Assembly: GCA_040376425.1 (NCBI GenBank)
Contig: JBEIQS010000002.1
Location: 60,173-124,172 of the forward strand
Source of the DNA: Alphaproteobacteria bacterium
GTDB lineage: Bacteria; Myxococcota_A; UBA796; SXON01
Direction: 5' to 3'
DNA length: 64,000 nucleotides
Shown here: piece by piece, positions 18,231-49,217 of the stretch
Layout: each line of letters begins with the position of its first letter
Numbering within the stretch: position 1 is the stretch's first letter
Notes under the pieces: generated by a model
Told to the model about the DNA's origin: nothing
The model's database searches: none
The model's input: only the letters and a program-made list of their open reading frames with translations
Translations under genes and position numbers: made by a program

Positions 18231-19366
18231 GCCCCTCCCCCGATGTGCAGCCCCACCACGTCCAAAACCAAGCCCAGCGGCGTACTTTCCTCCACAGAGA
18301 TCTCCACCCGCCCCGGCAGGCCATGGCCCAAGAGCAGCGGGCTCTCCCCCACCTCCAGCTCCACCCGCAGCCCCTCCGGGCCCGGCTCTTCTGCCACCGA
18401 GCGCACCTGCAGCGGCAGTGCGCCGAAGCGGATCCACGAGAATCCATCCAGGTACATCCTCGCGGACTGCCCCTCCTGCACCCGACCCGCCGCCGCTATC
18501 GGTAGCCAGGCCACCACCTGAAGGTCCGCCGTTGGCACCACCGTGGCCAGCCGCTCGCCCACCCCCACCCGCTGCCCAATGGTAAGCTGGCGTACCAAAC
18601 TCACCCTTCCGTCCACCGGTGCCCGGATGCGGTGGCGCTCCACCTGCTCCTCCCAGGCCGCCACGCGGGTCTCGGCGGTGGAAAAGGCCTCCTGCAAGGA
18701 AGTCAGCTCGTCGGTGAGTCCCCGGCGGCGTGTGTCCCGCGCTGCGGCATTGGCCCGGTGCTGATCCTGAAGCAAGGCCAATTCCTGGCGGGCTGCCGCG
18801 GCCGTGGCGGACAACGAGGCGAAGTCGGCACCCTCCGCCTGCACCTGCGCGGCGGAGATCCCGCCCGAATTCACCAGGCGCAACGCCGACTCATGGACCA
18901 GCTTCGCCTGCTGTGCCGCCACCTCCGCCACCTCCAGCCGGGAGCGTCCCACCCGCTCGGCCTGCGTCTCGGCCTCGGCCTCCGCCGCCAAGCGCGCCTG
19001 CTCCTCGCTCTGCCGGGCCTCCGCACTGCGCAGCCGCTGCTCTGCCGCGTCGCGACGCGCCTGCTCTTCCTCCAGCTTCAACCAGATATCCTGGGCATCC
19101 AGCTCGATCAGGATTTCATCCGCCTGAACCGGTCGGCCCAGCTCGAACAACACCCGCGCCACCTTGCCTTCCAGCGGGCTCTGGACCGGCGCGGCCAGAC
19201 TCTCGACCCGCGCCGTCGTGCTGGCCACACGTACGGTGAGCGGCGCCAGGGTAAACCACAAGGTCCACACAAATCCCAGGGACACGCACACAAAAATCCA
19301 CAGCAGCCAGCCGCGCGGGCTGTCCGCATTCAGGGAGCGCAGGGATCGGGTGAAGGGCAGGGGCAT
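18227..19366 (-). CDS. HlyD-family membrane fusion/secretion protein
   Basis: N-terminal TM helix, a long coiled-coil (EEEQARRDAAEQRLRSAEARQSEEQARLAAEAEAE), then a beta-barrel domain. First gene of the exporter triad. Confidence 0.8.
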   Translation of the reverse strand: MPLPFTRSLRSLNADSPRGWLLWIFVCVSLGFVWTLWFTLAPLTVRVASTTARVESLAAPVQSPLEGKVARVLFELGRPVQADEILIELDAQDIWLKLEEEQARRDAAEQRLRSAEARQSEEQARLAAEAEAETQAERVGRSRLEVAEVAAQQAKLVHESALRLVNSGGISAAQVQAEGADFASLSATAAAARQELALLQDQHRANAAARDTRRRGLTDELTSLQEAFSTAETRVAAWEEQVERHRIRAPVDGRVSLVRQLTIGQRVGVGERLATVVPTADLQVVAWLPIAAAGRVQEGQSARMYLDGFSWIRFGALPLQVRSVAEEPGPEGLRVELEVGESPLLLGHGLPGRVEISVEESTPLGLVLDVVGLHIGGGA

Positions 19367-29342: not shown

Positions 29343-30179
29343 ATGAAGGAAGGTCAGCCCAGCACCACCGCCGAAGCCGTCGCGTTTTGGCGGGCCCTGG
29401 AGCAGCACTATCCCCCCGAGCGTCGCATTTTGGATGATGGTTGGGCGCATCATTTTATGACCCGGCACACGCGCGCACTTCTAAAAATGAACGGTAATCC
29501 TTGGATTATTTCTCAATCTGACCATGTTTTTGGTCTGGGGACGATGGTCTACACGCTGCTGAGGCATCGCTGGATGGACCTTGCTTTTGAGCGTGCGGCC
29601 GGGCCCTTGGAACAGGTGCTGATTTTAGGTGCCGGCTACGATATGCGGGCCTTTCGCCTAAATTTTGGCGATGCGAAGGTCTTTGAGATCGATCATCCGG
29701 CCACCGGTGGCCGCAAAGCCCGCAAGGTGGCCACCTTGGGGCGCCCGGATCCTGTCCATCGGATCTCCGTGGACTTTTCAACCGAGAACCTCGCGCACGC
29801 TCTGGAGCGCGCAGGCTTTCAAAAAGACCGTAAATCCTGGTTTTTCTGGGAAGGAGTCTCTATGTACCTGCCGGAAGCGGCGGTGCGCTCCACCCTCACG
29901 GTTTTGTCCTCCTGGGGTTGTGAGGGGGTGCTGGACCTCTACGCGCCTCTGGAACATCCCGGTCTGGGTGGCTTCTACCGCCGTACCCTGCCCAGAGTGG
30001 TAGAACTCGTGGGAGAACCTGTCGATTTCCTCCTCCGTCCCGAACATGGCGAAGCCTTCGCCCGCGAGCTGGGCTTCCGCGTGCAGGCACTGGCAACCCA
30101 CCGGGATCTCCGCCTCCTTTCCCCACGCCCCGCCGCGCCCAACGAGAGCGGCTGGCTGATGCACCTGGTCCCCGCCTGA
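29343..30179 (+). CDS. Class I SAM-dependent O-methyltransferase, LCM (leucine carboxyl methyltransferase, PF04072/TIGR00027-like) family
   Basis: Trimmed to ATG 29343. Motifs VLILGAGYDMRAFRL, VFEIDHPATGGRKARKV and WFFWEGVSMYLPEAAV match my recollection of the LCM family. Confidence 0.7.
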   Translation: MKEGQPSTTAEAVAFWRALEQHYPPERRILDDGWAHHFMTRHTRALLKMNGNPWIISQSDHVFGLGTMVYTLLRHRWMDLAFERAAGPLEQVLILGAGYDMRAFRLNFGDAKVFEIDHPATGGRKARKVATLGRPDPVHRISVDFSTENLAHALERAGFQKDRKSWFFWEGVSMYLPEAAVRSTLTVLSSWGCEGVLDLYAPLEHPGLGGFYRRTLPRVVELVGEPVDFLLRPEHGEAFARELGFRVQALATHRDLRLLSPRPAAPNESGWLMHLVPA

Positions 30180-30208
30180 GCACTGCTCGGACCGCGCGCC
30201 CACCGCCC

Positions 30209-30246
30209 ATGCGCGCCCGCGCATTCCCACGATGCGCGCGCATCGT
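30209..30246. promoter_or_regulatory. Two adjacent GC-rich palindromes sharing the ATGCGCG half-site
   Basis: ATGCGCG-CC-CGCGCAT at 30209-30224, and the perfect 18-mer ACGATGCGCGCGCATCGT at 30229-30246. They lie 30 nt after the methyltransferase stop and upstream of peptide gene A. Confidence 0.4.
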
Positions 30247-30368
30247 CTGGCTACCCCTGACCTTGCAATAATCGGCCTTGGTCCGTTCGGGGGAGCCGGC
30301 ATGGCCCTTGCATAAGGGGAGTACAGCCGGATGAAGCCCGCTCCGGCCCACACCCAAGGAAGGACCCC

Positions 30369-30470
30369 ATGACCAAGCCCCTCTCGCTCACCGACTGCAA
30401 GCGCATCGTGACCCCCTCTGTCCGCACCGGCGTGCGCGCTGGGACTGGCAACGGTCGCTTCCGCTTCTAA
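30369..30470 (+). CDS. 33-aa peptide A (MTKPLSLTDCKRIVTPSVRTGVRAGTGNGRFRF), candidate modified-peptide precursor
   Basis: Hand-translated. ATG is 4 nt after AAGGAAGGA, with a TAA stop. A paralogue lies 231 nt downstream with synonymous-biased divergence. Not in the ORF track because it is under 60 aa. Confidence 0.6.
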   Translation: MTKPLSLTDCKRIVTPSVRTGVRAGTGNGRFRF

Positions 30471-30479
30471 CAAAAATCT

Positions 30480-30516
30480 CTGCGGGAGGGAGAGCCCCTC
30501 TCCCGCAGCTTTCTTC
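30480..30516 (+). terminator. Hairpin plus pyrimidine/T-rich tail after peptide gene A
   Basis: ctgcgggag (30480-88) pairs with ctcccgcag (30500-08) and is followed by ctttcttc. Confidence 0.45.
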
Positions 30517-30599
30517 ACCAGGGTGAGAGCCCCACCCCGGTGAGCCCAACCTGCAAGAGCCGAGAGCCCCGGCTCCTGCTTCCCCCCTCCGAGGATCCC

Positions 30600-30701
30600 A
30601 TGCAAAAGCCCCTTTCGACGGCCGACTGCAAGCGAATCGCCACCCCCTCCGTCCGCACCGGTGTGCGTGCAGGAGCCGGCAACGGTCGCTTCCGCTTCTG
30701 A
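30600..30701 (+). CDS. 33-aa peptide B (MQKPLSTADCKRIATPSVRTGVRAGAGNGRFRF), paralogue of peptide A
   Basis: Hand-translated. ATG is 4 nt after GAGGA, with a TGA stop. 28/33 residues are identical to peptide A. Confidence 0.6.
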   Translation: MQKPLSTADCKRIATPSVRTGVRAGAGNGRFRF

Positions 30702-30708
30702 CCTTGGC

Positions 30709-30769
30709 GCGGGAGAGAGAGCCCCTCTCCCGCCCTCCTCTCCCCGGGGCGAGAGCGCCGCTCCGGGGA
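30709..30769 (+). terminator. Two consecutive GC-rich hairpins between peptide gene B and the oxygenase gene (attenuator/terminator candidates)
   Basis: gcgggagag (30709-17) pairs with ctctcccgc (30725-33). tccccgg (30741-47) pairs with ccgggga (30763-69), with an inner ggcg/cgcc pairing. There is no clear U-tract. Confidence 0.4.
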
Positions 30770-30851
30770 ACCCCCTTCATGTGCTCTGGCCGGTCTCGGC
30801 TCGGTGGCGCAGGTACCGGCCGGAGCCATCTCTTTCGGTTAACGGCAAACG

Positions 30852-32024
30852 ATGGAAGCGCTGGCGACTCACCTGAAGCAGTTGATGGCGGCACGGCAGC
30901 CCACGGTGCTCCACCGCAAGGCCCGCCTGATGCCCCCATCCTGGGCCTTTGACCTGGCACAAGCCGCTACGGAACGTAGCCTCGCGGGGGTGCCCGGTGC
31001 GCGCATGCGGCTGTACGGCAACGGCCAAGAGCTGCCGCTGAACGCGGCGCTGCTGCCCCGGGCCGGGGACGCCAACCTCGCCGGCTGGTTGGAGCGAGTC
31101 CAGCTTCGAGATCCCGGTTTGGTCGTGAACAATGTCCAGTGCCTCCGCCCGGAGGTCTGGCGCTGGGTGCGACAGCTTCTGGGAAACCTGTTTGCGCAGG
31201 AAATGCCCGCAGGCGGTTGCAGCCTGGAGATTTTCACCGGCCGCTATCGCCAGAGCTTCTTCGGCCTCCACAAAGACGACCAGGATGTGGTTACCTTTGT
31301 ACTGGAGGGGACCAAGGTATTTTACGTCTGGCCCTTTGAAGTATTCAGTGCGCTTGCGCCGGGCCTGCAGCCCCTGGGCAACCACAGCCTGCCGGAGGTG
31401 GACTGGCGCCAGCACCTGGATCTGGCCATGCGCCTGGAGGCGCGTCCGGGCGACATCGTCTACTGGCCTGCGGAGGCCTGGCATATCGCCGCAGCAGACG
31501 ATCCCGAGCTGCTCACCACCACCTTGGGCCTGGGTTTTTTCCGGGGCGGCAACCCTGCCCAGCTCTGCTCCGATGCGGTGACGGCCGCCCTCGCCGAGGG
31601 GGAAAGCCCCGAGCTTCCCCCCTTCCAGCGGGATGCCATTCCGCAGAGGGTGGAGCAAATTCTTGCCTTCCTCGCCCAAGCTTCGGTACGCGAGCGTACG
31701 GAGGAACAACTCCTCTCCTGGCTCACCGGCTACGGCTTTACCACCCTGCCAGAACCGGAAGAGCAGACCGAGGTTCCTCCGCGGTTTCGGGCCGTTGCAC
31801 GAGGGGGAATCAGCTCTCTCCCCCGTGGATCTCAGCGGGTGGTGGGCGCCTGTGGCCGCCTCTTCCACATTCCCGAGCACGCCTTCCTCGTCGATCTTCT
31901 GAATGCCCTGGCGTCGGGCGCCACCCTGCACCGCAATGCCTGGCAGCACGACGAGGTGGCCCCTGAAGTGGTGGACTGGCTGCTCGTGGAGCTGCTGTCG
32001 GTGAGCGCGATCGAAGCAGCCTGA
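30852..32024 (+). CDS. JmjC/Cupin_4 Fe(II)/2-oxoglutarate oxygenase, ribosomal-oxygenase (YcfD/RoxA)-like architecture
   Basis: GLHKDDQDVVTFVLEGTKVFYVW (HxD) is followed about 70 aa later by VYWPAEAWH. The C-terminal LLNALASGATL...VVDWLLVELL parallels the ALDALASN...winged-helix tail of E. coli YcfD as I recall it. Confidence 0.7.
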   Translation: MEALATHLKQLMAARQPTVLHRKARLMPPSWAFDLAQAATERSLAGVPGARMRLYGNGQELPLNAALLPRAGDANLAGWLERVQLRDPGLVVNNVQCLRPEVWRWVRQLLGNLFAQEMPAGGCSLEIFTGRYRQSFFGLHKDDQDVVTFVLEGTKVFYVWPFEVFSALAPGLQPLGNHSLPEVDWRQHLDLAMRLEARPGDIVYWPAEAWHIAAADDPELLTTTLGLGFFRGGNPAQLCSDAVTAALAEGESPELPPFQRDAIPQRVEQILAFLAQASVRERTEEQLLSWLTGYGFTTLPEPEEQTEVPPRFRAVARGGISSLPRGSQRVVGACGRLFHIPEHAFLVDLLNALASGATLHRNAWQHDEVAPEVVDWLLVELLSVSAIEAA

Positions 32025-32027
32025 GCG

Positions 32028-34298
32028 CTACTCCTGCCGCACCTCCACCGTCACTGTGGCGGTGCCGCCGCCCCCATCCATCACCATGATCTGATGGACG
32101 CCCGCGGCGGGAATCCACCACAGGCGCTCCCCGTTGCCCTGCCCCCACATCTTGCCGTCCACAAACCAGGTGTAGGGCGCGTCTCCGCCCACACTCTCCA
32201 GCGGCACCTCCTGATCGTCGGCGGGCATACCGGGGATCAGGCTCAGCACCATGCCGGGGGAGGGGGAGCGGATGCTGGGTCGCCCCGCCGGGGCCTCGCA
32301 ACCGATGGCCCACGGGGGCACTTCGGACTCCGAAGAAAATCGGCTTCCCAGCCATGCTTTGACCGTGGCGGGCCAGGCCACCCGCGACTCCACCCGGCTG
32401 GGGCCCTGCCGACAGGCGGGGTGTACCCGAAAGCCGCGGACATCGATCTCCACGTTTTTGTGGTAGGGACAGGCCTCCGTCGGTACTTTTTCGACCCGGG
32501 CCAATGCGGTCCGCTGCTCGCCGCAGGCGGTGCTCGGCGGGTGACCGGACAGTGCACAGACCCGTACCGGCACCAGCTCGGCCGGTGCCGGGTCTTCGGA
32601 GCGCACGCGGTCATCCAGTCCGTCCAGCAGGTCAAAAAGCAGGGGGGCCGCCACTTCCGAGCCGATCAGGTGGGAGGAGCTGGAGTTGTCGAGGTTTCCC
32701 AGCCAAACCACCACGGTGTAGCGCTCGCCGGAGCCCACGGCCCATGCGTCCCGGTTTCCAAAGGAGGTTCCTGTCTTCCAGTGGATACCTGCGGGCATGG
32801 CCACCGCCGCACGGGTGGGAAAGTCGGGTCGGTCCCGCAGCCGCAGGGCGCGCCGGGTCAGCCAGGCCGCTCCCGGCGAAAGTACAGGCGTTCCCTCCAT
32901 CTCTTCGCTGTTGGCCTGCCAGCGCAGGGGCCGGTAGTGCCCGTCTTCGGCCAGTGCCGTGTAGAGCCCGGCCAGCTCCAAAGGCGTCAGCTCCACCCCG
33001 CCGGCCACCAGGGAGAGTCCATAGTAGCCCGGGTTGCCGTTCAGGTGCTTCACCCCTCCCTTTCTCAGCATCCCCAAGAAGGGCTCCACCCCCACCTGCT
33101 GCAGCAGGTGGATGAAGGGCACGTTCAGGGAGCGCGACAGCGACTCCTCCAGGCTCACCATGCCCGACCAGGTTCCATCATAGTTTTCGGGGCTGTAGCT
33201 GCCGAAGTGTACCGGCGCATCGGGGACCAGGAAGCCCGGCAGCGCGATCCCGCGGTCGATGGCGGCCGCGTACACAAAAGGTTTGAGAGTGGAGCCCGGC
33301 GACCGGGGCTCGTCGAAGGACAGAATCTGTCCCCCATGCTCCCGGTCCCAGAAGTCGAAATTGCCCGCCAGGGCCCGCAGCTCCGCGCTCTTGTGGTCCA
33401 CCACCACCACCGCCACGTTGTGGATACCCTCCGCAGCCCGCTCGGCGCGCACCCGCTCCAGCACTTTTTCGACACGACGCTGAAGACCCCCGTCCAGGGT
33501 GCTCCGCAGCCGCGAAAGACCCGGCAATTTCCGGTGCATCCACAGGGCCGCATGGGGCGCCAGGCGGGGGATGGTCTGGATGCGGGCCGGAACCGGAGGC
33601 AGGGGATCGGTAGAGGGAGCATAGACCCCGGCCGCCTCCAGACGGTACAGAATCTCGGCACGCGCTGCCGTCAGGCGGGCCTCATTTTCCGGGCTGGGAA
33701 AGCGCCGGTTGGGGTCCTGCGGCACCGCCAGCAGCGTGGCCACCTCGGCGCGGCTCAGGTCTTTGGCACTGTGCCCGAAGTACCAGAACGAGGCGGCCTC
33801 GATCCCCTCCACGTTCCGCCCGAAGGGCAGGTAGCTGAGATATTGTTCAAGGATCGCCTCTTTGCCTAGACGGATCTCCAGTTGCAGCGCCCGGGTGGCC
33901 TCGATGGCCTTGGAGGTCAGCACCCGCGGTCGGGGCTCCAGCATCCGCGCCAACTGCATCGTCAAGGTGGAGGCCCCGGACACCACCCGTCCTCTGGCCA
34001 CATTGCTCGCCACCGCCCGGCCCACCGCGATCGGGTCCACCCCCATGTGCCAGGGGAAGCGCTCATCCTCCAGCGCGAACAGCGCCCGCAGGTAGTCGGG
34101 GTCCACATCCGCCCGCGTCGCCGGGATTCGCCACTTTTGATCCCCGGACAGAAAGACGTGGGCAGCGCTGCCGTCGCGGTACAGCACCACGGCGGAGTCC
34201 TGGCCCAACATCCGCGGGGGCAGCGGCCACAGCCAGGCGCCCAAGACGCTCAGGGAGAGCAGCAGCAGGGAGGCGACCAAAAGTCGGGGCGAAATCAT
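32028..34298 (-). CDS. pbpC: Penicillin-binding protein 1C (bifunctional transglycosylase/transpeptidase)
   Basis: Trimmed to ATG 34298. GT51 motifs EDERFPWHMGVD and GASTLTMQLAR, transpeptidase SPGSTLKP, and the PBP1C-type C-terminal domain. Downstream of the alpha-2-macroglobulin gene. Confidence 0.85.
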   Translation of the reverse strand: MISPRLLVASLLLLSLSVLGAWLWPLPPRMLGQDSAVVLYRDGSAAHVFLSGDQKWRIPATRADVDPDYLRALFALEDERFPWHMGVDPIAVGRAVASNVARGRVVSGASTLTMQLARMLEPRPRVLTSKAIEATRALQLEIRLGKEAILEQYLSYLPFGRNVEGIEAASFWYFGHSAKDLSRAEVATLLAVPQDPNRRFPSPENEARLTAARAEILYRLEAAGVYAPSTDPLPPVPARIQTIPRLAPHAALWMHRKLPGLSRLRSTLDGGLQRRVEKVLERVRAERAAEGIHNVAVVVVDHKSAELRALAGNFDFWDREHGGQILSFDEPRSPGSTLKPFVYAAAIDRGIALPGFLVPDAPVHFGSYSPENYDGTWSGMVSLEESLSRSLNVPFIHLLQQVGVEPFLGMLRKGGVKHLNGNPGYYGLSLVAGGVELTPLELAGLYTALAEDGHYRPLRWQANSEEMEGTPVLSPGAAWLTRRALRLRDRPDFPTRAAVAMPAGIHWKTGTSFGNRDAWAVGSGERYTVVVWLGNLDNSSSSHLIGSEVAAPLLFDLLDGLDDRVRSEDPAPAELVPVRVCALSGHPPSTACGEQRTALARVEKVPTEACPYHKNVEIDVRGFRVHPACRQGPSRVESRVAWPATVKAWLGSRFSSESEVPPWAIGCEAPAGRPSIRSPSPGMVLSLIPGMPADDQEVPLESVGGDAPYTWFVDGKMWGQGNGERLWWIPAAGVHQIMVMDGGGGTATVTVEVRQE

Positions 34299-34403
34299 CG
34301 GATTCTGCCTTATATATCGTTTCGATATATATTGAAACGAGACATAGTTCCTCTTCAACGGAGAAGGGAAAGCCCCCAAAGGGGGCCTCCCCTCCCACCG
34401 ATC

Positions 34404-37400
34404 TCAGTCGCGCAGGGGCAGAACCACCGCGGATCCATTGCCCAGCCGGGCCCAGATCTCGGGGTCGTACATGGCCTCCGCAGTTGCGCCCGGCAACACA
34501 AAGCTGCCTGCGGTCACCGCGCGGACCTGGTAGACCACATCCACCGTGCCCCGGCTCTGCACGGTGCCGAACATCTCCACGCGGTCGTCACGCACGTTCA
34601 TATGGTCCACCGCCCACAGCTCCTCCGCCTCCTGCCAGTCGGGCATCCCACCCCGACCCAGGCGGGGGTTCTCGATCTCCCAGCCTGCGGGCACGCGGTC
34701 CACCAGGGCAATGTTGTCCATGGTCATGGCGGTGGTGTTGGTCAGCTCCAGCTTGACATAGATCAGGTCGCCCAAGCGGGGCTGTCCGGAGAGCGGCTCG
34801 CCATCGGGCCGGTGGTAGCTGCGCGTGACCTGGAGTCCCTCTCCGCCGGTGGGCCGGTCGTCCACCTTCAAGGTGCCCTCCATGGTGCTGACCAGGTACA
34901 GCTTCCCACCCAGGTTGTCGTTCACCTGCATGCTCAGGTCGTCGGCATTGCTGCCACGCTCCACCTGCCAGGTGGCGTTGTTGCCCTTGGTCTGACCGGG
35001 CTTCAACGTGGCACCATCGCGGCTGACAACCGGTGCCTTGAAGCCGGTGGGGGCCTTGCCCACGGACTTGCCGAGGCCGGTGATCGCCCAGGCCAGCTCC
35101 TGAGTGGTGTAGCCCCAGTCGGGCAGGCGCATCAGCGCCGAGCCCACCGCGTCTGCCATGGCGTCGCCCGCCGGGTCGTCGCCGAAGAGGTCGCGGAACA
35201 TGGACAGGCGCATCCCGCGCTCGCGCAGGTCGGAGTAGAAATTCCACCCATTGTAGCGACGCATCAGAATGGCCGAGCTGTCCGGCTTCCGCAGCTCGGT
35301 CTGGTAGCGCCGATCGCCCCCCAGGTACATCGCAGCCTTCAGCACCATGTCGGTCTCGTTCGCCCAGTAGAAGGAGCCGTTCACCCGCTCCAGCATGGCC
35401 GCTGCCTGCGCCGGACGCCCTTTTCCGCCCAATGCAAGTACATAGTGGGCGTATGCGCTCTCGCTGGTTCCCGCGAGGCTGTTGCTCTCGGTGACCCGCT
35501 CCAGGTAGGTCAGCGCATCGGCCAGGGCTTCTTCGTTCACCGGATAGCCCGCCTTCTTCGCATCCAATAGTGTGTGGGTGGCGTAGGCACTGCCCCAGGC
35601 AGCCGGCTCAGAGCCGCCCGGCCAGTAGGAGAAGCCACCGGAGGGGGTCTGCATCGACAGCAGGCGCTCCACCCCACGCTGGACCAGATCTTCCAGCTTG
35701 TCCTTCTTCTCCGGTCGAATGCTGTCCATCAGCTCGCCGATGTACAGGAGCGGCCGGGTGGAGGAGGAGGTCTGCTCGATGCAGCCGTAGGGGTAGCGGA
35801 TCAGGTACTCCATCCGCTTCAAGGCAGGTGCGTAGGGGTTGGTGGTCACCCAGAAGCTGGTGGAGTCGGTGCCAGGAATGAAGGCAGAAAGCTGATCCTT
35901 CAGGTTGGTGACCCCGGCGGGCAGGGCGATGCGGCGGACCTCCCGAGCCGGGGGGCGGGGAGGCTGCAGCGGAATCTCCAGCTCCTCGTGCGACTCCAGG
36001 TTGCCGGCCTTGGCCACCACACGCAGGCGGGCTCCGCCGGTGGCCGCCAGACCCTTCATGTGGAAATAGACCGATCCTCCCTCATCTTTCCCCAACTTCA
36101 GGCTGCCACCGCCGGTGATCTCCACCGGGTTCTTGGCACCCGCAATGCCCTCCACCTCTACCTTCACCGTCACATTCTGCGGGGAACCGGACATATTCGT
36201 GATGCGCACCGGCACATCGGCCTCGTCCCCCATCAGGAGGAAGCGCGGAAGGGTGGTCTGAAGCACCAAGGGCTCGCGTACCTTCACCTTGGCCGAGGCC
36301 CGACCCACCTTGCTGCGGCCGGTCGCTACCGCCATCACCCGCAGCTCGCCACGATAGCCAGGAACATCCAGGCTCACCGATGCCTTTCCATCGGGGCCCA
36401 CCTGCACCGGACCGGACCAGAGCGCCACCGGCTTCACCATCTGCACGCGGCCTCCCGCCCCTGCGGCGTCACCGCCGGTCTGTTTGCCGGAGCTGCCCGG
36501 CGCAAAGAGAAGGGTCCAGCCGATGGTCTCGTAGCCGCTCACCCCCAGGGCCCGGCGGGCAAAGAGGTCTCTGTTGGGATCGGGGTCCTGGAATTTTGTC
36601 AATGACAAAATCCCCTCGTCCACCGCCGCCACCGTGACCCAAGTGGGCTCGGTGGTGGCACCCAGATCCAGATCCACCTTCAGCGGCGAATAGGGCCGGA
36701 TCTCCGCAGGAACCGAAAGCTTCAGCTCAGAGGTGAAGGCGGTGGGCTCCACCCGCACCGACTTCACCCCGAAGGCGCGGTCGGGCAGGAAGGCCTGGGC
36801 GGACTCCATGTGCGGGTCCTTCACCACCAGCGCGCCCACGTACAGGTTGGGCGCAAAGGAGGTGACCGTGAATTCCCAGGTATTTTCGCCGGGCTTCACG
36901 TCCTTCCAGGCGTACTGCTGCACGCTGTCGGTCTCTACCGTGTACAGCACCCGCCCCGCAAAGGGCGCGTTGATCTTCACGGGAACCGTATCGCCCACCT
37001 TCACATTGTCGGGGAGCTGCACCGCAAGCGACTTGGGGGCCTCGGGACGGGGGGTTTCATCCACGGACATGTCGAAGTCCCACCACCACCAGCGCATGCC
37101 TCCGGGCAGGTAGTACTCCGTGTGCGCCTTGCCGCTGTCCACCACAACCAGCCAGCCGGAGCCGCGGTTTCCGGGGGTCAGGTCCAGGGTGAAGCTGCCG
37201 TCCGCCGCACTGACCACTTCCTGCTCGCTCTCTTTGGACCGACGCAGATAGCGCCGGTAGGTGCTGCGATAGCGCTCCGCATCCCAGGTCCAGACACTCT
37301 CCTCCTGGAGCTGGAGCACCTGCACGGACAGCTTCTTCTGGCCGGATTGGGGCTTGCCCTCCCAGTCCACCACCTTGCCCTCGAAGCGCACGGGGGTGCC

Positions 37401-40043
37401 GGACTCGGCGCGCTCGGCGGAGGTCTTCAGGCCGATATAGAACTTTTCGGGGTGTACGGGCACTTCTGCGGTCGCTACGGTGCTGCGGCCGCTGTCCCCC
37501 TCAAACACGGAGGTCTGAGCGATCAGCACCGAGGGAGTGGCCAACCCGGCCAGAGCTCGCGTGGTAGGGCAGGAAAGTGTTCCTTGCCCCAGCATATCCA
37601 GCTCGCCATCCACCTGGCCCAGGCTCAACAGTCGGCTGTTGTCGTCCCCCGACAAGGAAGCCGGACCAAAGCGGAAGCCCTCCAGGCCGGGCGGATCGAA
37701 GGGGCGGGGCTCCACCCGGCAGTCCAACTGGTAGCGGCTGCCATCGGCGGGCGCCCCAAAGAGCCAGGCCGCGTCCACCTGCACGTCCATCGCATCCGTG
37801 GGCAGGTAGGCCGCTTTTTTGGCCTTGGCGCTGGCGCGCATGCGCTCCGGCACAAACTCCTCCACCTGGAAGGAGAGCGAGCCGATGGAGCGCTTGGCCA
37901 CCTCCAGGCTCACCGTCCACCGACCGGTGGTGGCGGAGTCCGAGAAGGGCATATCCCAGTTGAGCAGGCCTGCCGCATTCACATTCAGCACTTTCTGCCG
38001 CACGATTTTCCCTTGCGGATCGCGAAGCAGGGCCATCACCGGCACCGACTCGGCCGGGGCAGAGTTCTGCTCGTCGCGCACCACCGCCGAGAGGTGGGCG
38101 GTGTCTCCCGGGCGATAGACGCCGCGATCCAGGTAGGGGGCCGCCCGGTAGGGCTGCTCGGTCTGGTAGGGCAGGCCGCCCACATCGCCCTCGATGGGGA
38201 TCTGCAGGTCGGCGAACTTCAGGTAGGTCAGGTCGCTCCCCTTCTTCGCCACCACGGCCATCGGCGCGCTGGTGTCGGCTTCGTCCTGCTTCACCTCCAC
38301 CTTGCAGTGGCCGTCTGAAGCCGTGGAGCAGGTGCCCAGGACAAAGCCCGAAGGCCGCACCAGCTTGATGTCCACCCCGCCGATGGGCTGGTTGTCGTGT
38401 ACGTCGATGGCCCAGACATCCACCCCCGGGGTCACCTTGTCCTTGGGCCCGGTGCCCGAAGTCTTGGCCAGCAGGTGCATGTCGGTGCGGAGCAGGCGCG
38501 CGGTGGCCTCGGCGGAGGCCTGCTGCCAGTCGTCGGAGGAGGGGGTGCGGCGGCCGGTGTCCTCGTTCTCCTCCTCGGCCTCCTCCCCCTCCGCGGCAGG
38601 CTTGCTGGGGTTGACCTTGATCAACTGAAGCTCATAGACGCCGTTGCCCACGTCCGGGACCAGCGAGGCCACGTCCACAAAGGAGGTGGTCGTGGTGTCC
38701 AAGGGGGCCGCCAGCGGAAATTCTGTATCCAACACTACATTCGAGCTGCGCTCGTCGGCGCGCTCCTGGCCGGACATCCAGAAGACCAGGTTGGCCTCGG
38801 GAATGTGGCGCACGCGCAGGCGCACGCGCTCCACGTTGGTGTGGACCACCGGCAGGTTGCGCCAGGCCGAGCGCGGAAGGTAGCGGCCGGAGGAGGCGAA
38901 CTGCAGCTTGGGCGTCCGGTGGGGGATGTCGAGCTGCGCCTCGTGGCGGCGCACCAGGCTGCCGCCGTCCTCGGTGATGGCGCCCCCGTCGATGGTGGCC
39001 TGGTAGGAGGTGCCCGGCATGAAGTCGCCAAAGATGCGGAAGCCCGCCTCGCCCGGCGCCATGCTCAGATTCTCGACGGCAGGGGAGAAGTGGACGGCAG
39101 ACTTGAGCATGTCCGCATCCAACACACAGCGGGTGGAGACCTTGTACTCCTCCCAGGACTGCCGGTCGTACCACCAGGTCTTCTCGGGAACCGCGTCGTC
39201 ATCGCAGATCACATCCAGGTAGAAGCCGTTGGCACCTTCGCGGGCCCGAACGGCCTTGATCACCATGGGGTGCTGCCCGAACTCCAGGGTCAGCGACGCC
39301 GTACTACGGGGAGCGCGGACATTGCCGCCGCTCATGCCCACCTCGGGCACCTTGATCTGGACCTGAACCGGTACGGGAGCTTCCTGGCCGAAGATCGAGT
39401 CGTTGATCTCGACGATCACCTCGTAGGGGTTGCTGCCCGGTCCCACCTTGCCCGTGGTGGGGATCCCATCCAGGGTCAGCGGCAGCTCGGCGGGCAGGTC
39501 CGCAGGGGCGCCCGCCCAGGACAGGGCCACCTTCACCATGCGCTGCTTCTTCTCCCAGGCCACCATCTTGGCATTCAGGAATTGGAACACCGGGGTGCGG
39601 AATTGGTGAGACCAGCCCGGGCCCTCCGGAGGCTTGAGGGGCTTGACCTCGGTGTCCTTGCTCACCACCGACTTCAGGGTGACGGTATAGGGAGTATTCG
39701 GCTTAAAAGCCTCGGTAGGCCGGAACACCAGGGTCCAGCGGTCCTGTACCGTCAGGCTGCCTTCCACCGCGGGACTGATCTCCAGAACAGTGCCTTCGGG
39801 AGGCGCATTCCCCACCTCTGCGGCCCCAAACATGGGGGTGCGGGAGCTGACCACCAGCGCCTCGGGCAGGGAGTCTGCAGGGCCACGCACGCGAATCGCC
39901 AGGTCTACACCCGGAGCAAGGTCGGTTTCAAACTGGCTTTCCGCAGGAGTGCTGCTGGATGCCTCTGGGCCGGAGGAGGAGAAAGACGGGACTTGCTCTG
40001 CAAGCTTGGAGCAACCGAGGGTCAACACGAGGAGGCTGTACAT
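34404..40043 (-). CDS. Bacterial alpha-2-macroglobulin (YfhM-like) lipoprotein with thioester
   Basis: Trimmed to ATG 40043 (lipobox LTLGCS). About 1880 aa, with the thioester motif YPYGCIEQTSS. Confidence 0.9.
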   Translation of the reverse strand: MYSLLVLTLGCSKLAEQVPSFSSSGPEASSSTPAESQFETDLAPGVDLAIRVRGPADSLPEALVVSSRTPMFGAAEVGNAPPEGTVLEISPAVEGSLTVQDRWTLVFRPTEAFKPNTPYTVTLKSVVSKDTEVKPLKPPEGPGWSHQFRTPVFQFLNAKMVAWEKKQRMVKVALSWAGAPADLPAELPLTLDGIPTTGKVGPGSNPYEVIVEINDSIFGQEAPVPVQVQIKVPEVGMSGGNVRAPRSTASLTLEFGQHPMVIKAVRAREGANGFYLDVICDDDAVPEKTWWYDRQSWEEYKVSTRCVLDADMLKSAVHFSPAVENLSMAPGEAGFRIFGDFMPGTSYQATIDGGAITEDGGSLVRRHEAQLDIPHRTPKLQFASSGRYLPRSAWRNLPVVHTNVERVRLRVRHIPEANLVFWMSGQERADERSSNVVLDTEFPLAAPLDTTTTSFVDVASLVPDVGNGVYELQLIKVNPSKPAAEGEEAEEENEDTGRRTPSSDDWQQASAEATARLLRTDMHLLAKTSGTGPKDKVTPGVDVWAIDVHDNQPIGGVDIKLVRPSGFVLGTCSTASDGHCKVEVKQDEADTSAPMAVVAKKGSDLTYLKFADLQIPIEGDVGGLPYQTEQPYRAAPYLDRGVYRPGDTAHLSAVVRDEQNSAPAESVPVMALLRDPQGKIVRQKVLNVNAAGLLNWDMPFSDSATTGRWTVSLEVAKRSIGSLSFQVEEFVPERMRASAKAKKAAYLPTDAMDVQVDAAWLFGAPADGSRYQLDCRVEPRPFDPPGLEGFRFGPASLSGDDNSRLLSLGQVDGELDMLGQGTLSCPTTRALAGLATPSVLIAQTSVFEGDSGRSTVATAEVPVHPEKFYIGLKTSAERAESGTPVRFEGKVVDWEGKPQSGQKKLSVQVLQLQEESVWTWDAERYRSTYRRYLRRSKESEQEVVSAADGSFTLDLTPGNRGSGWLVVVDSGKAHTEYYLPGGMRWWWWDFDMSVDETPRPEAPKSLAVQLPDNVKVGDTVPVKINAPFAGRVLYTVETDSVQQYAWKDVKPGENTWEFTVTSFAPNLYVGALVVKDPHMESAQAFLPDRAFGVKSVRVEPTAFTSELKLSVPAEIRPYSPLKVDLDLGATTEPTWVTVAAVDEGILSLTKFQDPDPNRDLFARRALGVSGYETIGWTLLFAPGSSGKQTGGDAAGAGGRVQMVKPVALWSGPVQVGPDGKASVSLDVPGYRGELRVMAVATGRSKVGRASAKVKVREPLVLQTTLPRFLLMGDEADVPVRITNMSGSPQNVTVKVEVEGIAGAKNPVEITGGGSLKLGKDEGGSVYFHMKGLAATGGARLRVVAKAGNLESHEELEIPLQPPRPPAREVRRIALPAGVTNLKDQLSAFIPGTDSTSFWVTTNPYAPALKRMEYLIRYPYGCIEQTSSSTRPLLYIGELMDSIRPEKKDKLEDLVQRGVERLLSMQTPSGGFSYWPGGSEPAAWGSAYATHTLLDAKKAGYPVNEEALADALTYLERVTESNSLAGTSESAYAHYVLALGGKGRPAQAAAMLERVNGSFYWANETDMVLKAAMYLGGDRRYQTELRKPDSSAILMRRYNGWNFYSDLRERGMRLSMFRDLFGDDPAGDAMADAVGSALMRLPDWGYTTQELAWAITGLGKSVGKAPTGFKAPVVSRDGATLKPGQTKGNNATWQVERGSNADDLSMQVNDNLGGKLYLVSTMEGTLKVDDRPTGGEGLQVTRSYHRPDGEPLSGQPRLGDLIYVKLELTNTTAMTMDNIALVDRVPAGWEIENPRLGRGGMPDWQEAEELWAVDHMNVRDDRVEMFGTVQSRGTVDVVYQVRAVTAGSFVLPGATAEAMYDPEIWARLGNGSAVVLPLRD

Positions 40044-40245
40044 GGTCTTCCTTAAAGGGGGGATGGCCCCGAGCACAGGTCTTAGCAAGAGCCGTGCCGA
40101 AGGGCACGCCTATTTTGATGGGAGGAATTCGTTGCTTCCCGCGCCGAGTCGGCCGACACTCTCTACGATTAATAGATCGAATTCTATCAGTCCCGCCCCG
40201 GTCGCCCACCGCGGCGAAGGGGATATACTGTGGGCGGGAGTGGCA

Positions 40246-41902: not shown

Positions 41903-43039
41903 ATGGCGCTCCGCTTCGCGGACTACCGCAAACGGATGGAAAAGGCCGCTACTGCATGGATTTCCGGCCGAAATCTATTGACAGGTCAAGCCCCCTACAT
42001 CCTGAAAGACCACACTCAGTGGCCGCAAAACCTGCTTGAACCGGGTCTTGCCGGAATGATTGAGGCGGAACGTACTCTTCGCGCGACCACCGGCGCGGGA
42101 TTTCCCCTCCACAAATACCTGCACCACGGGCTCTCCAGCCAGGCCATGTTGTTCAACCTGGTGTTGCCCCTGCAGCAGAAGGGGGACATCGACGCATGGA
42201 AGGGCGGCTTTGAGGCGGCGGGGATCCCCTGGCCCGGCCCGGATGCCACGGCGCGGCTGGAGGTGGAGGATCGCAGCCTGTTCAACGAAAATAGCGGCCA
42301 ACCCACCAGCTTTGATCTGGAGATCAGCGGACCCGGCGGTCCCAGCCTGTACATCGAAGCCAAGCTGGTGGAGCAGGAGTTCGGCGGATGCAGCCTGTTG
42401 GAGGGGGGAGACTGTGACGGCGAAAACCCGGCGAAGGACCATCAGAAGTGTGCCCTGGTCGGCCTGGGCAGGCGCTATTGGGAGAGACTGGACGCCCTCG
42501 GTTTTGACCTCTCCGCAGGTCCTATCTGCCCCTTTGGCAGCTACTACCAGTTCTATCGAGAGGCTGCCTACGCCCTGACCCGGGGAGGGCACTTTGTGCT
42601 ATTGGTCCACGACCAGAACCCCGCCTTCTGGAAAGATGGCGGAGAACGTGGCCTGTGGCCGCTGCTCCTCCGAACGGTCCCTCAACAGCATCGTAGCCGC
42701 CTGCACCGCCTCAGCCTCCAGCAGCTTGCGGAGGCACTGCGCCAGACCGGCCGCCACCCGTGGATCGACGAATTCTCCACCCGCTACGCCCTGAACGCTC
42801 CGGTATTGACAGGTCAAGCCCCTGAAGACGTCCTGGCGCTGCTTCCTCTGCCCACCGCCGCCGCCATCCGTCGACTGTGGGAAGATGTCGCCAAAGGGGG
42901 CCAAGAGGGTCGAACAGCACAGACACGCATCTCCAAACGGCTGGCCGGAGAAGGGATCTTCAAGGGAGATCCACGCTGGGAGCGTGTGATCGGGTATGGG
43001 CGGGGGTTGTACTATGGGGATGGAAGCGGTACGATCTGA
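41903..43039 (+). CDS. Hypothetical protein with PD-(D/E)xK nuclease-like motif
   Basis: FDLEISG...LYIEAKLVEQEFG fits a D...ExK arrangement. It starts 4 nt after the upstream stop. Family not recognised. Confidence 0.4.
   Translation: MALRFADYRKRMEKAATAWISGRNLLTGQAPYILKDHTQWPQNLLEPGLAGMIEAERTLRATTGAGFPLHKYLHHGLSSQAMLFNLVLPLQQKGDIDAWKGGFEAAGIPWPGPDATARLEVEDRSLFNENSGQPTSFDLEISGPGGPSLYIEAKLVEQEFGGCSLLEGGDCDGENPAKDHQKCALVGLGRRYWERLDALGFDLSAGPICPFGSYYQFYREAAYALTRGGHFVLLVHDQNPAFWKDGGERGLWPLLLRTVPQQHRSRLHRLSLQQLAEALRQTGRHPWIDEFSTRYALNAPVLTGQAPEDVLALLPLPTAAAIRRLWEDVAKGGQEGRTAQTRISKRLAGEGIFKGDPRWERVIGYGRGLYYGDGSGTI
41976..41994 (+). repeat. 19-nt exact direct repeat copy 1 (tattgacaggtcaagcccc), containing palindrome TTGAC-AG-GTCAA
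   Basis: Read directly. It encodes LLTGQAP. Confidence 0.85.
42804..42822 (+). repeat. 19-nt exact direct repeat copy 2 (tattgacaggtcaagcccc)
   Basis: Read directly. It lies 828 bp (276 codons) downstream of copy 1, in the same frame, and encodes VLTGQAP. Confidence 0.85.
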
Positions 43040-43041
43040 GC

Positions 43042-43467
43042 ATGCCCATTGTACTCCCTCCCTTTGACCGCAGCACCGGTGGCTGTTCCGCACCGGAGTT
43101 TCTGTCCAAGCTGCTTCCGGCCTTCACCCTCGCCAATGAAATCTGCCGCGAGTGCTGCGTCATTCACGACGAAATCTACTACTACGGCGGCACCCGTGAG
43201 GACCGGCGTGCGGCGGATCTGGCGCTGCAGAGCTGTATTGAGGGGCACGGCTTTCCCTCGGTAGCCGAGCAGTACTTTTTTGCTGTGCGACCTTTTGGCG
43301 GGCCGGAGCACCGCATCCCCAAGGTGAGCTGGGCCTTCGGCGGCTTGCGCTTTGTCTATGATACCGACCTGGTCCCCAACAGCCCAAGCCAAAAGGCACT
43401 TCGGGCACTCCAAAAGCGGGCGAAGGCCGAAAAAGATCTTCGAAAGGTTGGAAAAAAGCCAACCTGA
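43042..43467 (+). CDS. Small HD-motif protein (DUF1353-like / phospholipase-A2-like CCxxHDxxY motif)
   Basis: Trimmed to ATG 43042, 2 nt after the upstream stop. CRECCVIHDEIYYYGGTREDRRAADLAL...AVRPFGG is present. The family call is tentative. Confidence 0.35.
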   Translation: MPIVLPPFDRSTGGCSAPEFLSKLLPAFTLANEICRECCVIHDEIYYYGGTREDRRAADLALQSCIEGHGFPSVAEQYFFAVRPFGGPEHRIPKVSWAFGGLRFVYDTDLVPNSPSQKALRALQKRAKAEKDLRKVGKKPT

Positions 43468-43553
43468 CCGCTGCGCAAGCGGCCGTCGAAATTATCTGCA
43501 CACCCTTGCTTGTGGTCGCCGCCAGGATACCAACAAAAAGCGTGAGGTGTGCC

Positions 43554-44903
43554 ATGTCGAAAAGTCAGGCCCCCCAACAGTCCCACCGTTCCGGCCCGGC
43601 ACCGGCTCCGTCGGGGAACGGGGCTGGGAGGGCGGCTGTCAGCCCTACAAACCAACGCGGCAACGCCTTCGCCGCACAGCAGGTCACTGCCGCGCTGGCT
43701 GCCTCTGGAAGTGCGCCCGAAAAGAAGGGCACACCTTCGGGAACCGGCGGAGCCGCGATTCCAGCATCGATTCGCAGCCGGATGGAACAGCGCTTCGGAG
43801 CCGATTTTTCCAGTGTAAAAGTGGTGATTGACCCGGAGCTGGCGAAGGCCAGCACCCAGGCATTCACGACTGGGGATACAATCCGATCGGCTTCCTCCCA
43901 GATTCTCTCGGGGTCACCTGCCGGAGACAAGCTGCTTGCCCACGAGCTTACCCACGTCGTACAGCAACGCAGCGGACGTGTTGGAAAGGGGGATGGAGAT
44001 CAAGCTGACCCCGATCCGTCTCTGGAGGCAGAAGCCCAGCGCCAAGGCGAGCAGGTGGCGGGTGACGAACCTGCCTCGGTTGGGGGCGGCCCGGACCAAT
44101 CGGCCCCCTCCCGGGAGTCCGTTCCAAAGGCTGCCCCCACGCAATCCGCCCCCGCCCAACGCGCCGGCCCTGCCATCCCCATCATCATCTGGGGTGGCAA
44201 AGCACTCGCCGCCACCACCCTCGACCACTTCATTGACTTTGCGATCGCGGCCATTCTCGGCCTTCCCGCACCGGGACTCGCCGACGACGCCATCAACTTT
44301 GCCATCAACCTCGTGCCATTCTTGGGTGAAGCCAAAAAAGTAAAGAAGATCGCCAAGCTGTTTGAGCTGGTCGACAAAGTCAGCGATTTCGTGAAGCGCA
44401 TGAAGACGCTCAACAAGGGGGGCAAGCGACTACTGGACAACATTGTCCGCGAATCTGGAAAATTGCGGGAGGCTATCGACAGCTTGGAGCTGGAGAAAGC
44501 CAAAGCTGCCTTCGGCCGGCTGATCGGGCACGTGCGCGAAGGACAGGTGGCGGCAAAACTGGGTGGAGAGTCTGGCGAAAAACTGATATTCACCGGAATG
44601 GACAAGCTCAGGGACGGCACCAAGCTCGGTACCGACATCGACGTGGTCTTCAAGGAAGGCAACGATGTCGTGTTCGGCGAAGTGAAGGCTTTGAGCGCCG
44701 GAAACCCTGTTCCTGGCACCAAGAGCTGGGATGAGTTCATGGCCAAGGCTGACATCAAGCTCGACGCGGCCAAGAAGTACAGCGATCTGGAGGGCGTTAC
44801 CACCAAGCTCCGGTACTATGTGGACGAGATCTCTGACGAAGCACGGCAGGCGTTGGAGGCCAAAGGCATTGACGTCGTCTTGAACGGAACCATCTTGAAT
44901 TGA
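43554..44903 (+). CDS. DUF4157 (zincin-like HExxH) N-terminal domain polymorphic toxin with PD-(D/E)xK-like C-terminal domain
   Basis: Trimmed to ATG 43554. RMEQRFGADFSSVKV...LLAHELTHVVQQ is the DUF4157 hallmark. The C-terminus has GTDIDVVF...VVFGEVKAL. The 3' third is visibly lower in GC: 29 G+C in the 60 nt from 44341. Confidence 0.7.
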   Translation: MSKSQAPQQSHRSGPAPAPSGNGAGRAAVSPTNQRGNAFAAQQVTAALAASGSAPEKKGTPSGTGGAAIPASIRSRMEQRFGADFSSVKVVIDPELAKASTQAFTTGDTIRSASSQILSGSPAGDKLLAHELTHVVQQRSGRVGKGDGDQADPDPSLEAEAQRQGEQVAGDEPASVGGGPDQSAPSRESVPKAAPTQSAPAQRAGPAIPIIIWGGKALAATTLDHFIDFAIAAILGLPAPGLADDAINFAINLVPFLGEAKKVKKIAKLFELVDKVSDFVKRMKTLNKGGKRLLDNIVRESGKLREAIDSLELEKAKAAFGRLIGHVREGQVAAKLGGESGEKLIFTGMDKLRDGTKLGTDIDVVFKEGNDVVFGEVKALSAGNPVPGTKSWDEFMAKADIKLDAAKKYSDLEGVTTKLRYYVDEISDEARQALEAKGIDVVLNGTILN

Positions 44904-48495: not shown

Positions 48496-49181
48496 GCGAG
48501 GCTCCGATGCAGGGCCAGGCAAAGGGCCGGCCAGTTTTGAGAGGGCGGAAACGCAGGCAGACCTGCTATTGTAGCACATCTCGCCTGAAGCTCATGATAC
48601 CAATCTTTTTCAACAGACTCCTCTATCCGTAGAGGCAGTCCCAAAAAGTCGGCGAGGCGGTCCAGGTGGCGTTCCTGCCAGGCGCGATCCGGGTCGGCAG
48701 GCAGACTCAGCAGGCGTTCAAGCGGCCCGTGGAGGGCATGGAAAGCGGGCAACCACCGCTCCCACAGCAGCACCCCCAGGTACAGGCGGCAGGCCAGCTC
48801 CACCTCGCGCACCGGCTCCAGGTGCAGCAGGCTCTGCTCCACCAGCCCATCCGTCTCGCCGACCATACACTCCAAGGCCCGGTTCTGAACCACTTCAATT
48901 GCGTTGGCAAAGACTTCCGCATCCGACCAGGCGGAGGTGGCATGCAGGTGGGCCGCGTGGATCCCGTCGCTCAGCTCCTGCGCCGCCATCGCCAGCCACT
49001 CCGCACGGTCCACAGGAACTTCTTCGCGATCTTCGCTGGCCATCACCGAAGTGCGCAGCAGCGTCCCTATCACCCGCCAGAACAGCGGCGGCAGGGCTTC
49101 CGCTGCCCCGTGGCGACGCCGAGCCGACTCGGTCACCAGACCCCACAGCGCCCCTTCCGGTACTTTGATGTCCCCGCTCAT
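48492..49181 (-). CDS. Hypothetical protein
   Basis: 229-aa ORF with an ATGA overlap to the downstream thioredoxin/TPR gene. No family recognised. Confidence 0.45.
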   Translation of the reverse strand: MSGDIKVPEGALWGLVTESARRRHGAAEALPPLFWRVIGTLLRTSVMASEDREEVPVDRAEWLAMAAQELSDGIHAAHLHATSAWSDAEVFANAIEVVQNRALECMVGETDGLVEQSLLHLEPVREVELACRLYLGVLLWERWLPAFHALHGPLERLLSLPADPDRAWQERHLDRLADFLGLPLRIEESVEKDWYHELQARCATIAGLPAFPPSQNWPALCLALHRSLA

Positions 49182-49217
49182 CTGCCCTCCTCCGCAGGAC
49201 GCGATATATCCGCTGCC

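Follow-up and report, generated by a model that had tools for sequence, protein, structure and literature searches.

Conserved short peptide genes paired with a ROX-like JmjC oxygenase: a candidate minimal RiPP-like cassette

We analysed a 64-kb stretch of contig JBEIQS010000002.1 (hereafter the window; all positions count from its first letter), in which two tandem 33-codon genes, here called pepA and pepB, lie just upstream of a gene for a JmjC-type oxygenase. pepA has its ATG at 30369 and its stop codon at 30468-30470 (30356..30470 on the plus strand, counted with its Shine-Dalgarno (SD) tract), and its translation is MTKPLSLTDCKRIVTPSVRTGVRAGTGNGRFRF. The paralogous pepB starts at 30600 (30591..30701 with its SD tract, plus strand) and encodes MQKPLSTADCKRIATPSVRTGVRAGAGNGRFRF. 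The original prediction, which proposed that this locus is a cassette for a ribosomally made, post-translationally modified peptide (RiPP), had read these two open reading frames (ORFs) at 30369-30470 and 30600-30701, and both translations were confirmed: they differ at 5 positions, 28 of the 33 residues being identical. The purine tracts that it described were found as well, AAGGAAGGA (30356-30364) and GAGGA (30591-30595), each stopping 4 nt short of the ATG, and so were the GC hairpins 3' of both ORFs. The oxygenase gene (30852..32024, plus strand) begins 150 nt past pepB and encodes a 390-residue Fe(II)/2-oxoglutarate (2OG) JmjC enzyme carrying the predicted H140-K-D142 and W210-H211 motifs, 71 residues apart; it matches PF08007 (JmjC_2) with 26.3 bits (cut-off 22) and, below threshold, Cupin_8. 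Note that pepB and the oxygenase gene, 252 nt apart, are in a common reading frame, probably by coincidence.

On the other side of the peptide genes, and again as predicted, a gene for an LCM-type S-adenosylmethionine-dependent methyltransferase (29343..30179, plus strand; PF04072 1.3e-36, TIGR00027 8.4e-45) ends 189 nt before pepA. All of these co-directional units are bounded by pbpC (32028-34379, minus strand; Transgly, Transpeptidase and BiPBP_C domains), which, followed by an alpha-2-macroglobulin (A2M) gene, converges onto the oxygenase stop codon.

Our results indicate that pepA and pepB are real genes. We compared them with three related metagenomic contigs (L001, L003 and L006), whose oxygenases are 84-87% identical to that of the window. 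The pepA orthologues differ by 7-13 synonymous versus 0-2 non-synonymous changes, and between the window and L001 we counted 13 synonymous and 0 non-synonymous differences over the 33 codons. Across all pepA pairs, the proportion of synonymous differences (pS) was 0.26-0.48 and that of non-synonymous differences (pN) 0-0.028; pN/pS was about 0-0.1 against L001, L003 and L006, the mark of purifying selection. pepB is retained in L001 and L006, with its changes confined to the N-terminal half, and in L003 its position is occupied by a degenerate remnant (MNKPMKRTPLPVFF, then a stop codon) instead of a gene. Because of this, the peptide copy number varies, but one intact copy is always kept. pepA itself is intact in all three contigs. 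With an SD tract, purifying selection and a family known from about 10 lineages and, in the protein collection, from about 30 clusters, the genes have the properties of gene-encoded short precursors, and their products match no NCBIfam or Pfam model.

The peptides belong to a family that accompanies one clade of oxygenases. An exhaustive HMMER search for oxygenase homologues gave 910 cluster representatives, of which the nearest beyond the immediate clade were about 40% identical, and a word-indexed protein search gave 5 close relatives. An all-against-all comparison of small ORFs was dominated by low-complexity ORFs of high GC content, and a hidden Markov model (HMM) built from the peptides was used instead. 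Run over 99 loci and the window, this HMM recovered exactly the oxygenase-linked ORFs (E 1e-21 to 1e-8) and nothing further above noise; window pepA scored 53 bits (2.5e-14). A small ORF of this family was found within about 1 kb of the oxygenase gene in 13/13 loci of a single clade, representing about 10 lineages, and in 12 of them it lies directly upstream on the same strand. The pairing persists when the enzymes are just 31-38% identical (L005, L008, L009, L013, L014, L015, L017 and L024 are among the upstream cases). The exception is L010: here the oxygenase gene has the peptide gene about 1.1 kb downstream, on the opposite strand and ahead of a gene for a sigma70_r4-type helix-turn-helix (HTH) protein. 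A neighbour-joining tree of 78 oxygenase homologues groups the 13 peptide-positive enzymes as one clade, and the peptide was found beside 0/65 of the others. The link between the small ORFs and the oxygenase, part of the original prediction, is thus specific and holds across wide divergence: the modifying enzyme is genetically tied to the precursor-like gene, and the two are a co-evolving pair. Since pepA is under purifying selection and the peptide profile is found beside every oxygenase of the same clade, the sequence observation as a whole is far beyond chance.

The family members, such as those of L005 (MSKKLTAQDIQKAAAQAAPLHIKSGVRAGSGNGRFKY), L008 (MENKDQKNETKSPAITIADLEAREKQTEGQNLRIRSGVRAGAGRFAGPGRY), L013 (MTETKTETKPATAAQPETAVTAADLLQADRAAQRRNAVRTGLRAGADNGRFGRF) and L015 (MEKNDQKDDKAPAITVADLEGRERETAGQNLKLRTGVRAGALNGKYVNGKY), and likewise those of L009, L010, L014, L017 and L024, follow a three-part consensus. 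A hydrophilic N-terminus is followed by the segment (I/L)TxxDLxxxExxTxxxNLxV[RK][ST]G[VIL]RAG, whose G-x-R-A-G never varies, and by a tail of 8-17 residues made of G/N, R/K and F/Y, with (R/K)(F/Y) as its usual end. In the window peptides this consensus has a short leader. A profile search of a 5.8-billion-protein collection added about 30 further peptide clusters of 33-56 residues, all of them unnamed or called 'hypothetical'. A conserved N-terminal and central segment up to RAG, then a variable tail of 8-17 residues, is a pattern compatible with a leader and a core. A double-glycine (C39) leader ending at RAG is a possible reading, with hydrophobic positions that depart from the usual consensus. 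All family members come from metagenome-assembled, Myxococcota-type contigs.

Precursor-like ORFs were also observed upstream of the oxygenase genes of sister clades. Some have Lys-rich leaders that end in KVKGG, KVTGG or RIKGG (L030 22-213, L044 7176-7328, L060 513-680 and 2013-2111), and others, in L011 (9503-9694) and L022, are of the type MKKKMKLETLKVKSF.... These ORFs suggest that the whole oxygenase family pairs with small peptides. Separately, the weak profile matches P0181-P0186 (L097 3405-3659) carry 2-4 copies of V[KR][ST]G[VL]RAG, and units such as SLTANHNR come after each copy. Their genes adjoin ABC transporter genes, no JmjC gene was found on the short contigs examined, and the proteins could be multi-core relatives or belong to a family of their own.

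Next, we looked at the enzyme. In the alignment of homologues, H140, D142 and H211 are invariant and K155, 15 residues past H140, is nearly invariant; a spacing of 15 residues from the His to the 2OG-binding Lys is that of FIH. With these residues intact, an active Fe(II)/2OG oxygenase is expected. In profile searches against the PDB, the nearest solved structures were FIH (5e-6), Bacillus subtilis YxbC (1e-5), Rhodothermus YcfD (3e-4) and Escherichia coli YcfD (about 0.04-0.06). The order changed when structures were compared. The full-length AlphaFold2 (AF2) model (pLDDT 91.8) matched the ribosomal oxygenases (ROX) best in Foldseek, with NO66 first (8.9e-17), then the Rhodothermus and E. coli YcfD (TM 0.5-0.58) and MINA53, all ahead of YxbC and FIH, and the alignments to NO66, YcfD and MINA53 covered 410-460 columns. 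The model predicts the three-domain architecture of this class, a JmjC barrel, a helical dimerisation domain and a C-terminal winged helix, and the enzyme has the JmjC double-stranded beta-helix with HxD/E...H and the basic 2OG-binding residue expected of it. Since ribosomal oxygenases top the full-length structural matches, the YcfD/RoxA-like fold proposed in the original prediction is supported at the level of predicted architecture.

The C-terminal domain (residues ~298-390, nt 31743-32021, plus strand) was also modelled alone. These 93 residues (pLDDT 91.9) are predicted to form 4 strands and then helices; the PqqD-like winged helix of an RRE has three of each in that order. Foldseek matched them to the ROX winged helices first and otherwise only to the RiPP recognition elements (RREs) of ThcOx, McbB, TbiB1, LynD, PbtF, MccB and TigE, with TM 0.45-0.6 and, for the RREs, E-values of 0.05-1.

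As to existing names, a 185-residue oxygenase fragment in the cluster of P0001 is called 'ribosomal protein L16 Arg81 hydroxylase' in IMG, and an NCBI relative is a 'cupin domain-containing protein'. Both names are automatic and ignore the linked peptide.

The non-coding parts of the locus carry candidate expression signals. A sigma-54-type -24/-12 promoter-like element, CGGCATGGCCCTTGCA (GG-N10-GC; 30297..30312, plus strand), lies 72 nt 5' of the pepA ATG. At this site L006 has the full sigma-54 consensus, TGGCACGGGCCTTGCA, and L001 has CGGCACGGCCTTTGCA; the GG and GC dinucleotides are retained in the window. Comparable elements occur at -67 in L005, -88 in L017 and -73 in L024, and no sigma-70-like site was found. 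Between 50 and 90 nt 5' of the element, two GC-rich palindromes read from the sequence, ATGCGCGCCCGCGCAT (30209-30224) and GATGCGCGCGCATC (30231-30244; together 30209..30244, plus strand), are kept in the alignment with L001 and L006, and may be sites for an activator (enhancer-binding protein). A search of the window returned no sigma-54 activator gene.

Downstream of the peptide genes, RNA folding gave five stem-loops on the plus strand, three after pepA (30480-30508, 30514-30544 and 30553-30579; z = -3.0) and two after pepB (30709..30769). Their 7-nt loop, closed by G-C, reads AGAGCCC, except for one AGAGCGC in the second group. Among L001 (600-900), L003 (140-240) and L006 (3300-3400) the loop is invariant, and the stems differ with compensatory changes. 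No other copy of the motif, GAGAGCCCC, is present in the window, and only this clade has it. With these features, the stem-loops look less like plain terminators than like a repeated RNA motif for protein binding or processing. CsrA-type GGA loops were rejected because GGA is present in only 1/5 stem-loops, and the intergenic RNA had no Rfam match. Finally, a hairpin of about 50 nt with a U-rich tract (30779..30829, plus strand), which L003 has as a 7-U tract, stops some 20 nt short of the oxygenase ATG. In the four related loci it is near-invariant and better conserved than the synonymous sites of the peptide genes. Such a hairpin resembles a terminator or attenuator and may set the ratio of peptide to enzyme, in which case oxygenase expression would depend on read-through. 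Together, the signals suggest an abundant peptide mRNA with attenuated read-through into the enzyme gene.

An array of this kind raises the possibility that the small ORFs are cis-regulatory leader peptides (upstream ORFs), or unrelated small proteins such as toxins, whose adjacency to the oxygenase has no enzymatic meaning. The hairpins and the terminator-like element 3' of the ORFs are attenuator-like, the neighbours at distant loci are often regulators (Ser/Thr kinases, FHA-OmpR, sigma70_r4 HTH and AraC proteins), and the peptide modification is putative. However, attenuator ORFs would not hold a specific amino-acid motif while the enzymes diverge to 31-38% identity, the hairpin array is restricted to the window clade although every member of the enzyme clade has the peptide, and the genes were duplicated in tandem with the C-terminal half left invariant. 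We therefore regard this explanation as very unlikely.

The original prediction also counted the LCM methyltransferase as a member of the cassette, and this part did not hold. By tblastn the methyltransferase was matched only in L001 and L006, and its retention there is uninformative because synteny in these near-identical relatives (84-87%) extends to pbpC and A2M, which are unrelated genes. In the distant loci with peptide and oxygenase, several of them with 7-10 kb of flank, 0/10 had an LCM homologue at E<1e-5; co-conservation with the pair was thus not seen, and a cross-comparison of the distant loci left the oxygenase as the sole universal gene. In the window, moreover, the conserved palindromes and the promoter-like element stand between the methyltransferase gene and pepA. 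The methyltransferase gene is a neighbour, probably outside the conserved module. LCM enzymes methylate protein C-terminal carboxylates, and the window peptides do end in a conserved aromatic residue, in line with such a reaction; together with the co-directional position 189 nt from pepA and the retention in two relatives, this would fit a three-component cassette in which oxygenase and methyltransferase both modify the peptides, for example by O-methylation of the C-terminal carboxyl or of a hydroxyl. Given the distant loci, we consider this improbable, and a lineage-specific tailoring role for the methyltransferase, which may exist, is without support.

Regulatory genes recur near the pair. 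Ser/Thr kinases with TPR or AAA_16 domains were found by it in 5/9 distant loci (L009 1338-3983, L010 6729-9788, L014 1456-3636, L015 5034-6986 and L017 3247-7371), FHA and OmpR-type regulators in 2/9 (L008 11190-12134 and L015 3982-4998), sigma70_r4-type HTH proteins in another two of the nine (L009 and L010), and AraC regulators in L024. The pattern suggests either regulation or the myxobacterial background. Even for kinase-rich myxobacteria, the kinases and FHA-OmpR regulators seem to adjoin the pair more often than chance would give, and a conserved Ser/Thr stands in the V[RK][ST]G of the peptide. The kinases were rejected as maturases: they have TPR or AAA_16 domains and lack the architecture of lanthipeptide synthetases.

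Transport genes were seen at two places. An ABC ATPase lies directly upstream of the pair in the L005/L098 lineage only, and in the window, about 11 kb upstream of the peptides, 13471-19366 (minus strand) encodes an ABC transporter, a C39-peptidase ABC transporter of the bacteriocin type (PCAT) and an HlyD-family protein. Neither set can be linked to the peptides. As for the remaining neighbours, pbpC and the gene for a 1894-residue A2M-type protein (32028-40088, minus strand) keep their synteny in L001, L003 and L006 and have no bearing on the finding. The A2M Pfam families were taken from the L001 orthologue, which is 92-93% identical, and the pairing of pbpC with A2M is known in bacteria. 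Further on, 41903-44903 and 48666-49883 encode a REase-ARP/PD-(D/E)XK nuclease, an extracellular contractile injection system (eCIS) core domain protein and a radical SAM protein.

Taking these results together, the reading that we favour, with a probability of roughly 0.6, is that pepA and pepB encode translated, precursor-like peptides that are dedicated substrates of the ROX-like JmjC oxygenase, the peptide gene and the enzyme gene forming a minimal two-gene RiPP-like cassette. It builds on real genes under purifying selection, strict co-occurrence with one enzyme clade, intact catalytic residues and a ROX/RRE-like fold; we infer the modification, its site, any removal of a leader, any export, and the biological role. 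As a genetic module the pair is well supported and its evolution is suggestive; the chemistry and biology are putative.

The cassette could work as follows. The sigma-54-type promoter would give an abundant peptide mRNA, and the stem-loops and the terminator-like hairpin would restrict read-through into the oxygenase gene. The C-terminal RRE-like winged helix would then dock the conserved peptide segment (...NLxV[RK][ST]G[VIL]RAG), and the Fe(II)/2OG centre (H140, D142, H211 and K155) would oxidise a peptide side chain, most likely by hydroxylation. Two sites are candidates. The first is the invariant Arg in G-[VIL]-R-A-G, a motif similar to V-R-M-G in the uL16 loop, where YcfD acts as hydroxylase; the sequence of that loop in E. 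coli, A-V-R81-M-G-K-G, was verified, and hhalign aligned the peptide profile to uL16 best, though without significance, on residues 77-83. The second lies in the variable tail, at an [RK]/[FY] residue, as the usual RiPP logic would have it, with the conserved part as the handle and the variable part as the product. A fuller version, in which a ROX-type JmjC enzyme is the sole class-defining maturase of a Myxococcota peptide family, the winged helix recognises the leader and the invariant Arg of a uL16-like V-R-x-G loop is hydroxylated, is tentative, and we would not expect it to hold in all its parts.

The resemblance to uL16 can also be taken the other way: the oxygenase could be a true ribosomal-protein hydroxylase that acts on the uL16 Arg, like YcfD/RoxA, and the peptides uL16-loop mimics serving as regulators, decoys or competitive inhibitors. 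The structural matches headed by ROX enzymes, the IMG name of the fragment, and the likeness of the peptide G-V-R-A-G-x-G to A-V-R-M-G-K-G, where the best hhalign match falls, are all in line with this. Yet the sequence similarity to YcfD is marginal (about 0.04-0.06 for the E. coli and 3e-4 for the Rhodothermus protein) and weaker than that to FIH and YxbC, the putative 2OG-binding residue is Lys as in FIH and not Arg as in YcfD, the hhalign match is not significant, and only h-R-A-G is universal in the peptide family. A private substrate is the better fit to an enzyme so strictly inherited together with a private peptide. On balance, a ribosomal role for the enzyme seems quite unlikely.

Several points weigh against the substrate reading that we favour. 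The resemblance to uL16 is not statistically significant (hhalign E 0.17), and beyond the universal h-R-A-G, the G-x-G-x-G part of the uL16 loop is not shared throughout the peptide family. The RRE matches of the C-terminal domain are weak, with the E-values of 0.05-1 given above, and the same domain is present in true ribosomal oxygenases, for which we know of no use as an RRE. The sigma-54-like element was not found in L008, L018, L009, L010, L013 or L015. No leader peptidase or exporter is shared among the distant loci with peptide and oxygenase; because neither is conserved with the pair, the 'classic RiPP layout' of the original prediction was overstated, although the arrangement of peptide and enzyme is RiPP-like. 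The family members come solely from metagenome assemblies and are known here from sequence alone, an origin that may explain why the family went unnoticed. The modification of the peptides, too, is a prediction and not an observation.

Even so, the data point to a family of enzyme-modified peptides that annotation has missed. Provided that the peptide is indeed the substrate, the system is very small, one peptide and one enzyme, and a bacterial ROX-like JmjC oxygenase gains a dedicated small-peptide substrate. The conserved winged helix of ribosomal oxygenases could then be explained as a peptide-recognition module, and uncultured myxobacteria, whose group is a rich source of bioactive natural products, would gain a family of short cationic-aromatic peptides. 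Should a ROX-type enzyme prove to be the sole maturase, ribosomal oxygenases and RiPP maturases would be tied evolutionarily, and the product might be a signalling or antibiotic peptide under sigma-54 or kinase regulation. The finding also corrects automatic annotation, in which the enzyme goes by 'L16 Arg81 hydroxylase' or by 'cupin domain protein' and the peptides are left uncalled or 'hypothetical'.

Among known systems, the ROX enzymes (E. coli YcfD/RoxA, Rhodothermus YcfD, human NO66 and MINA53) are the closest in architecture. Their JmjC barrel, their helical domain and the winged helix at their C-terminus are all predicted for the window enzyme as well, which also has the HxD...H triad, and the V-R-x-G motif of the peptide resembles the Arg81 loop of uL16, a resemblance that is not significant. 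They differ in sequence, with identities of just 14-20% and marginal profile-to-PDB similarity, and in the putative 2OG-binding residue, Lys in the window enzyme and Arg in YcfD. To our knowledge, ROX enzymes have no co-encoded private peptide, whereas the clade of the window enzyme always comes with one of 33-56 residues.

With the RRE-bearing maturases the window enzyme shares a predicted winged helix of strands and then helices, whose sole matches outside ROX are RREs, including those of TbiB1 and PbtF, which were solved with bound leader; the structural E-values for this comparison are weak (0.05-1). An alpha-ketoglutarate (alpha-KG)-dependent dioxygenase has reportedly been found by Xia et al. 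(JACS 2025, 147:26693) to perform macrocyclisation in RiPPs, which would make an alpha-KG enzyme the principal maturase. According to PMC12710340, RRE-like domains are fused to PF08007 JmjC proteins, which agrees with the matches of our C-terminal domain, bacterial homologues occur in RiPP-like contexts, and the enzyme of Xia et al. is cited among these contexts; the window peptide family is not described in the text consulted. PMC12636437 describes the enzyme of Xia et al. as forming a Cys-Tyr cross-link. Such a link cannot be a chemistry common to the window family, whose members do not all keep the Cys seen in the window peptides.

Finally, JmjC enzymes already have a place in RiPP pathways. 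BipG is a JmjC ornithine hydroxylase of the biphenomycin pathway (PMC12707348), and CzlI a JmjC Phe hydroxylase of the curacozole pathway (PMC11575548). With both published, the original prediction, which knew of no RiPP class combining a ROX-type JmjC oxygenase with an LCM methyltransferase, was too strong on the lack of precedent and is out of date on this point. The peptide family, or a cassette with a ROX-like JmjC protein as its only conserved enzyme, was not found in Pfam, NCBIfam or the literature searched. The window system has in common with BipG and CzlI an Fe/2OG JmjC enzyme acting on a ribosomally made precursor, which in the window is the putative substrate. It differs in its peptide family. 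Moreover, BipG and CzlI are accessories in multi-enzyme clusters defined by multinuclear non-haem iron oxidase (MNIO), radical SAM (rSAM) or YcaO-type enzymes, whereas in the window cassette the JmjC oxygenase is the sole conserved enzyme.

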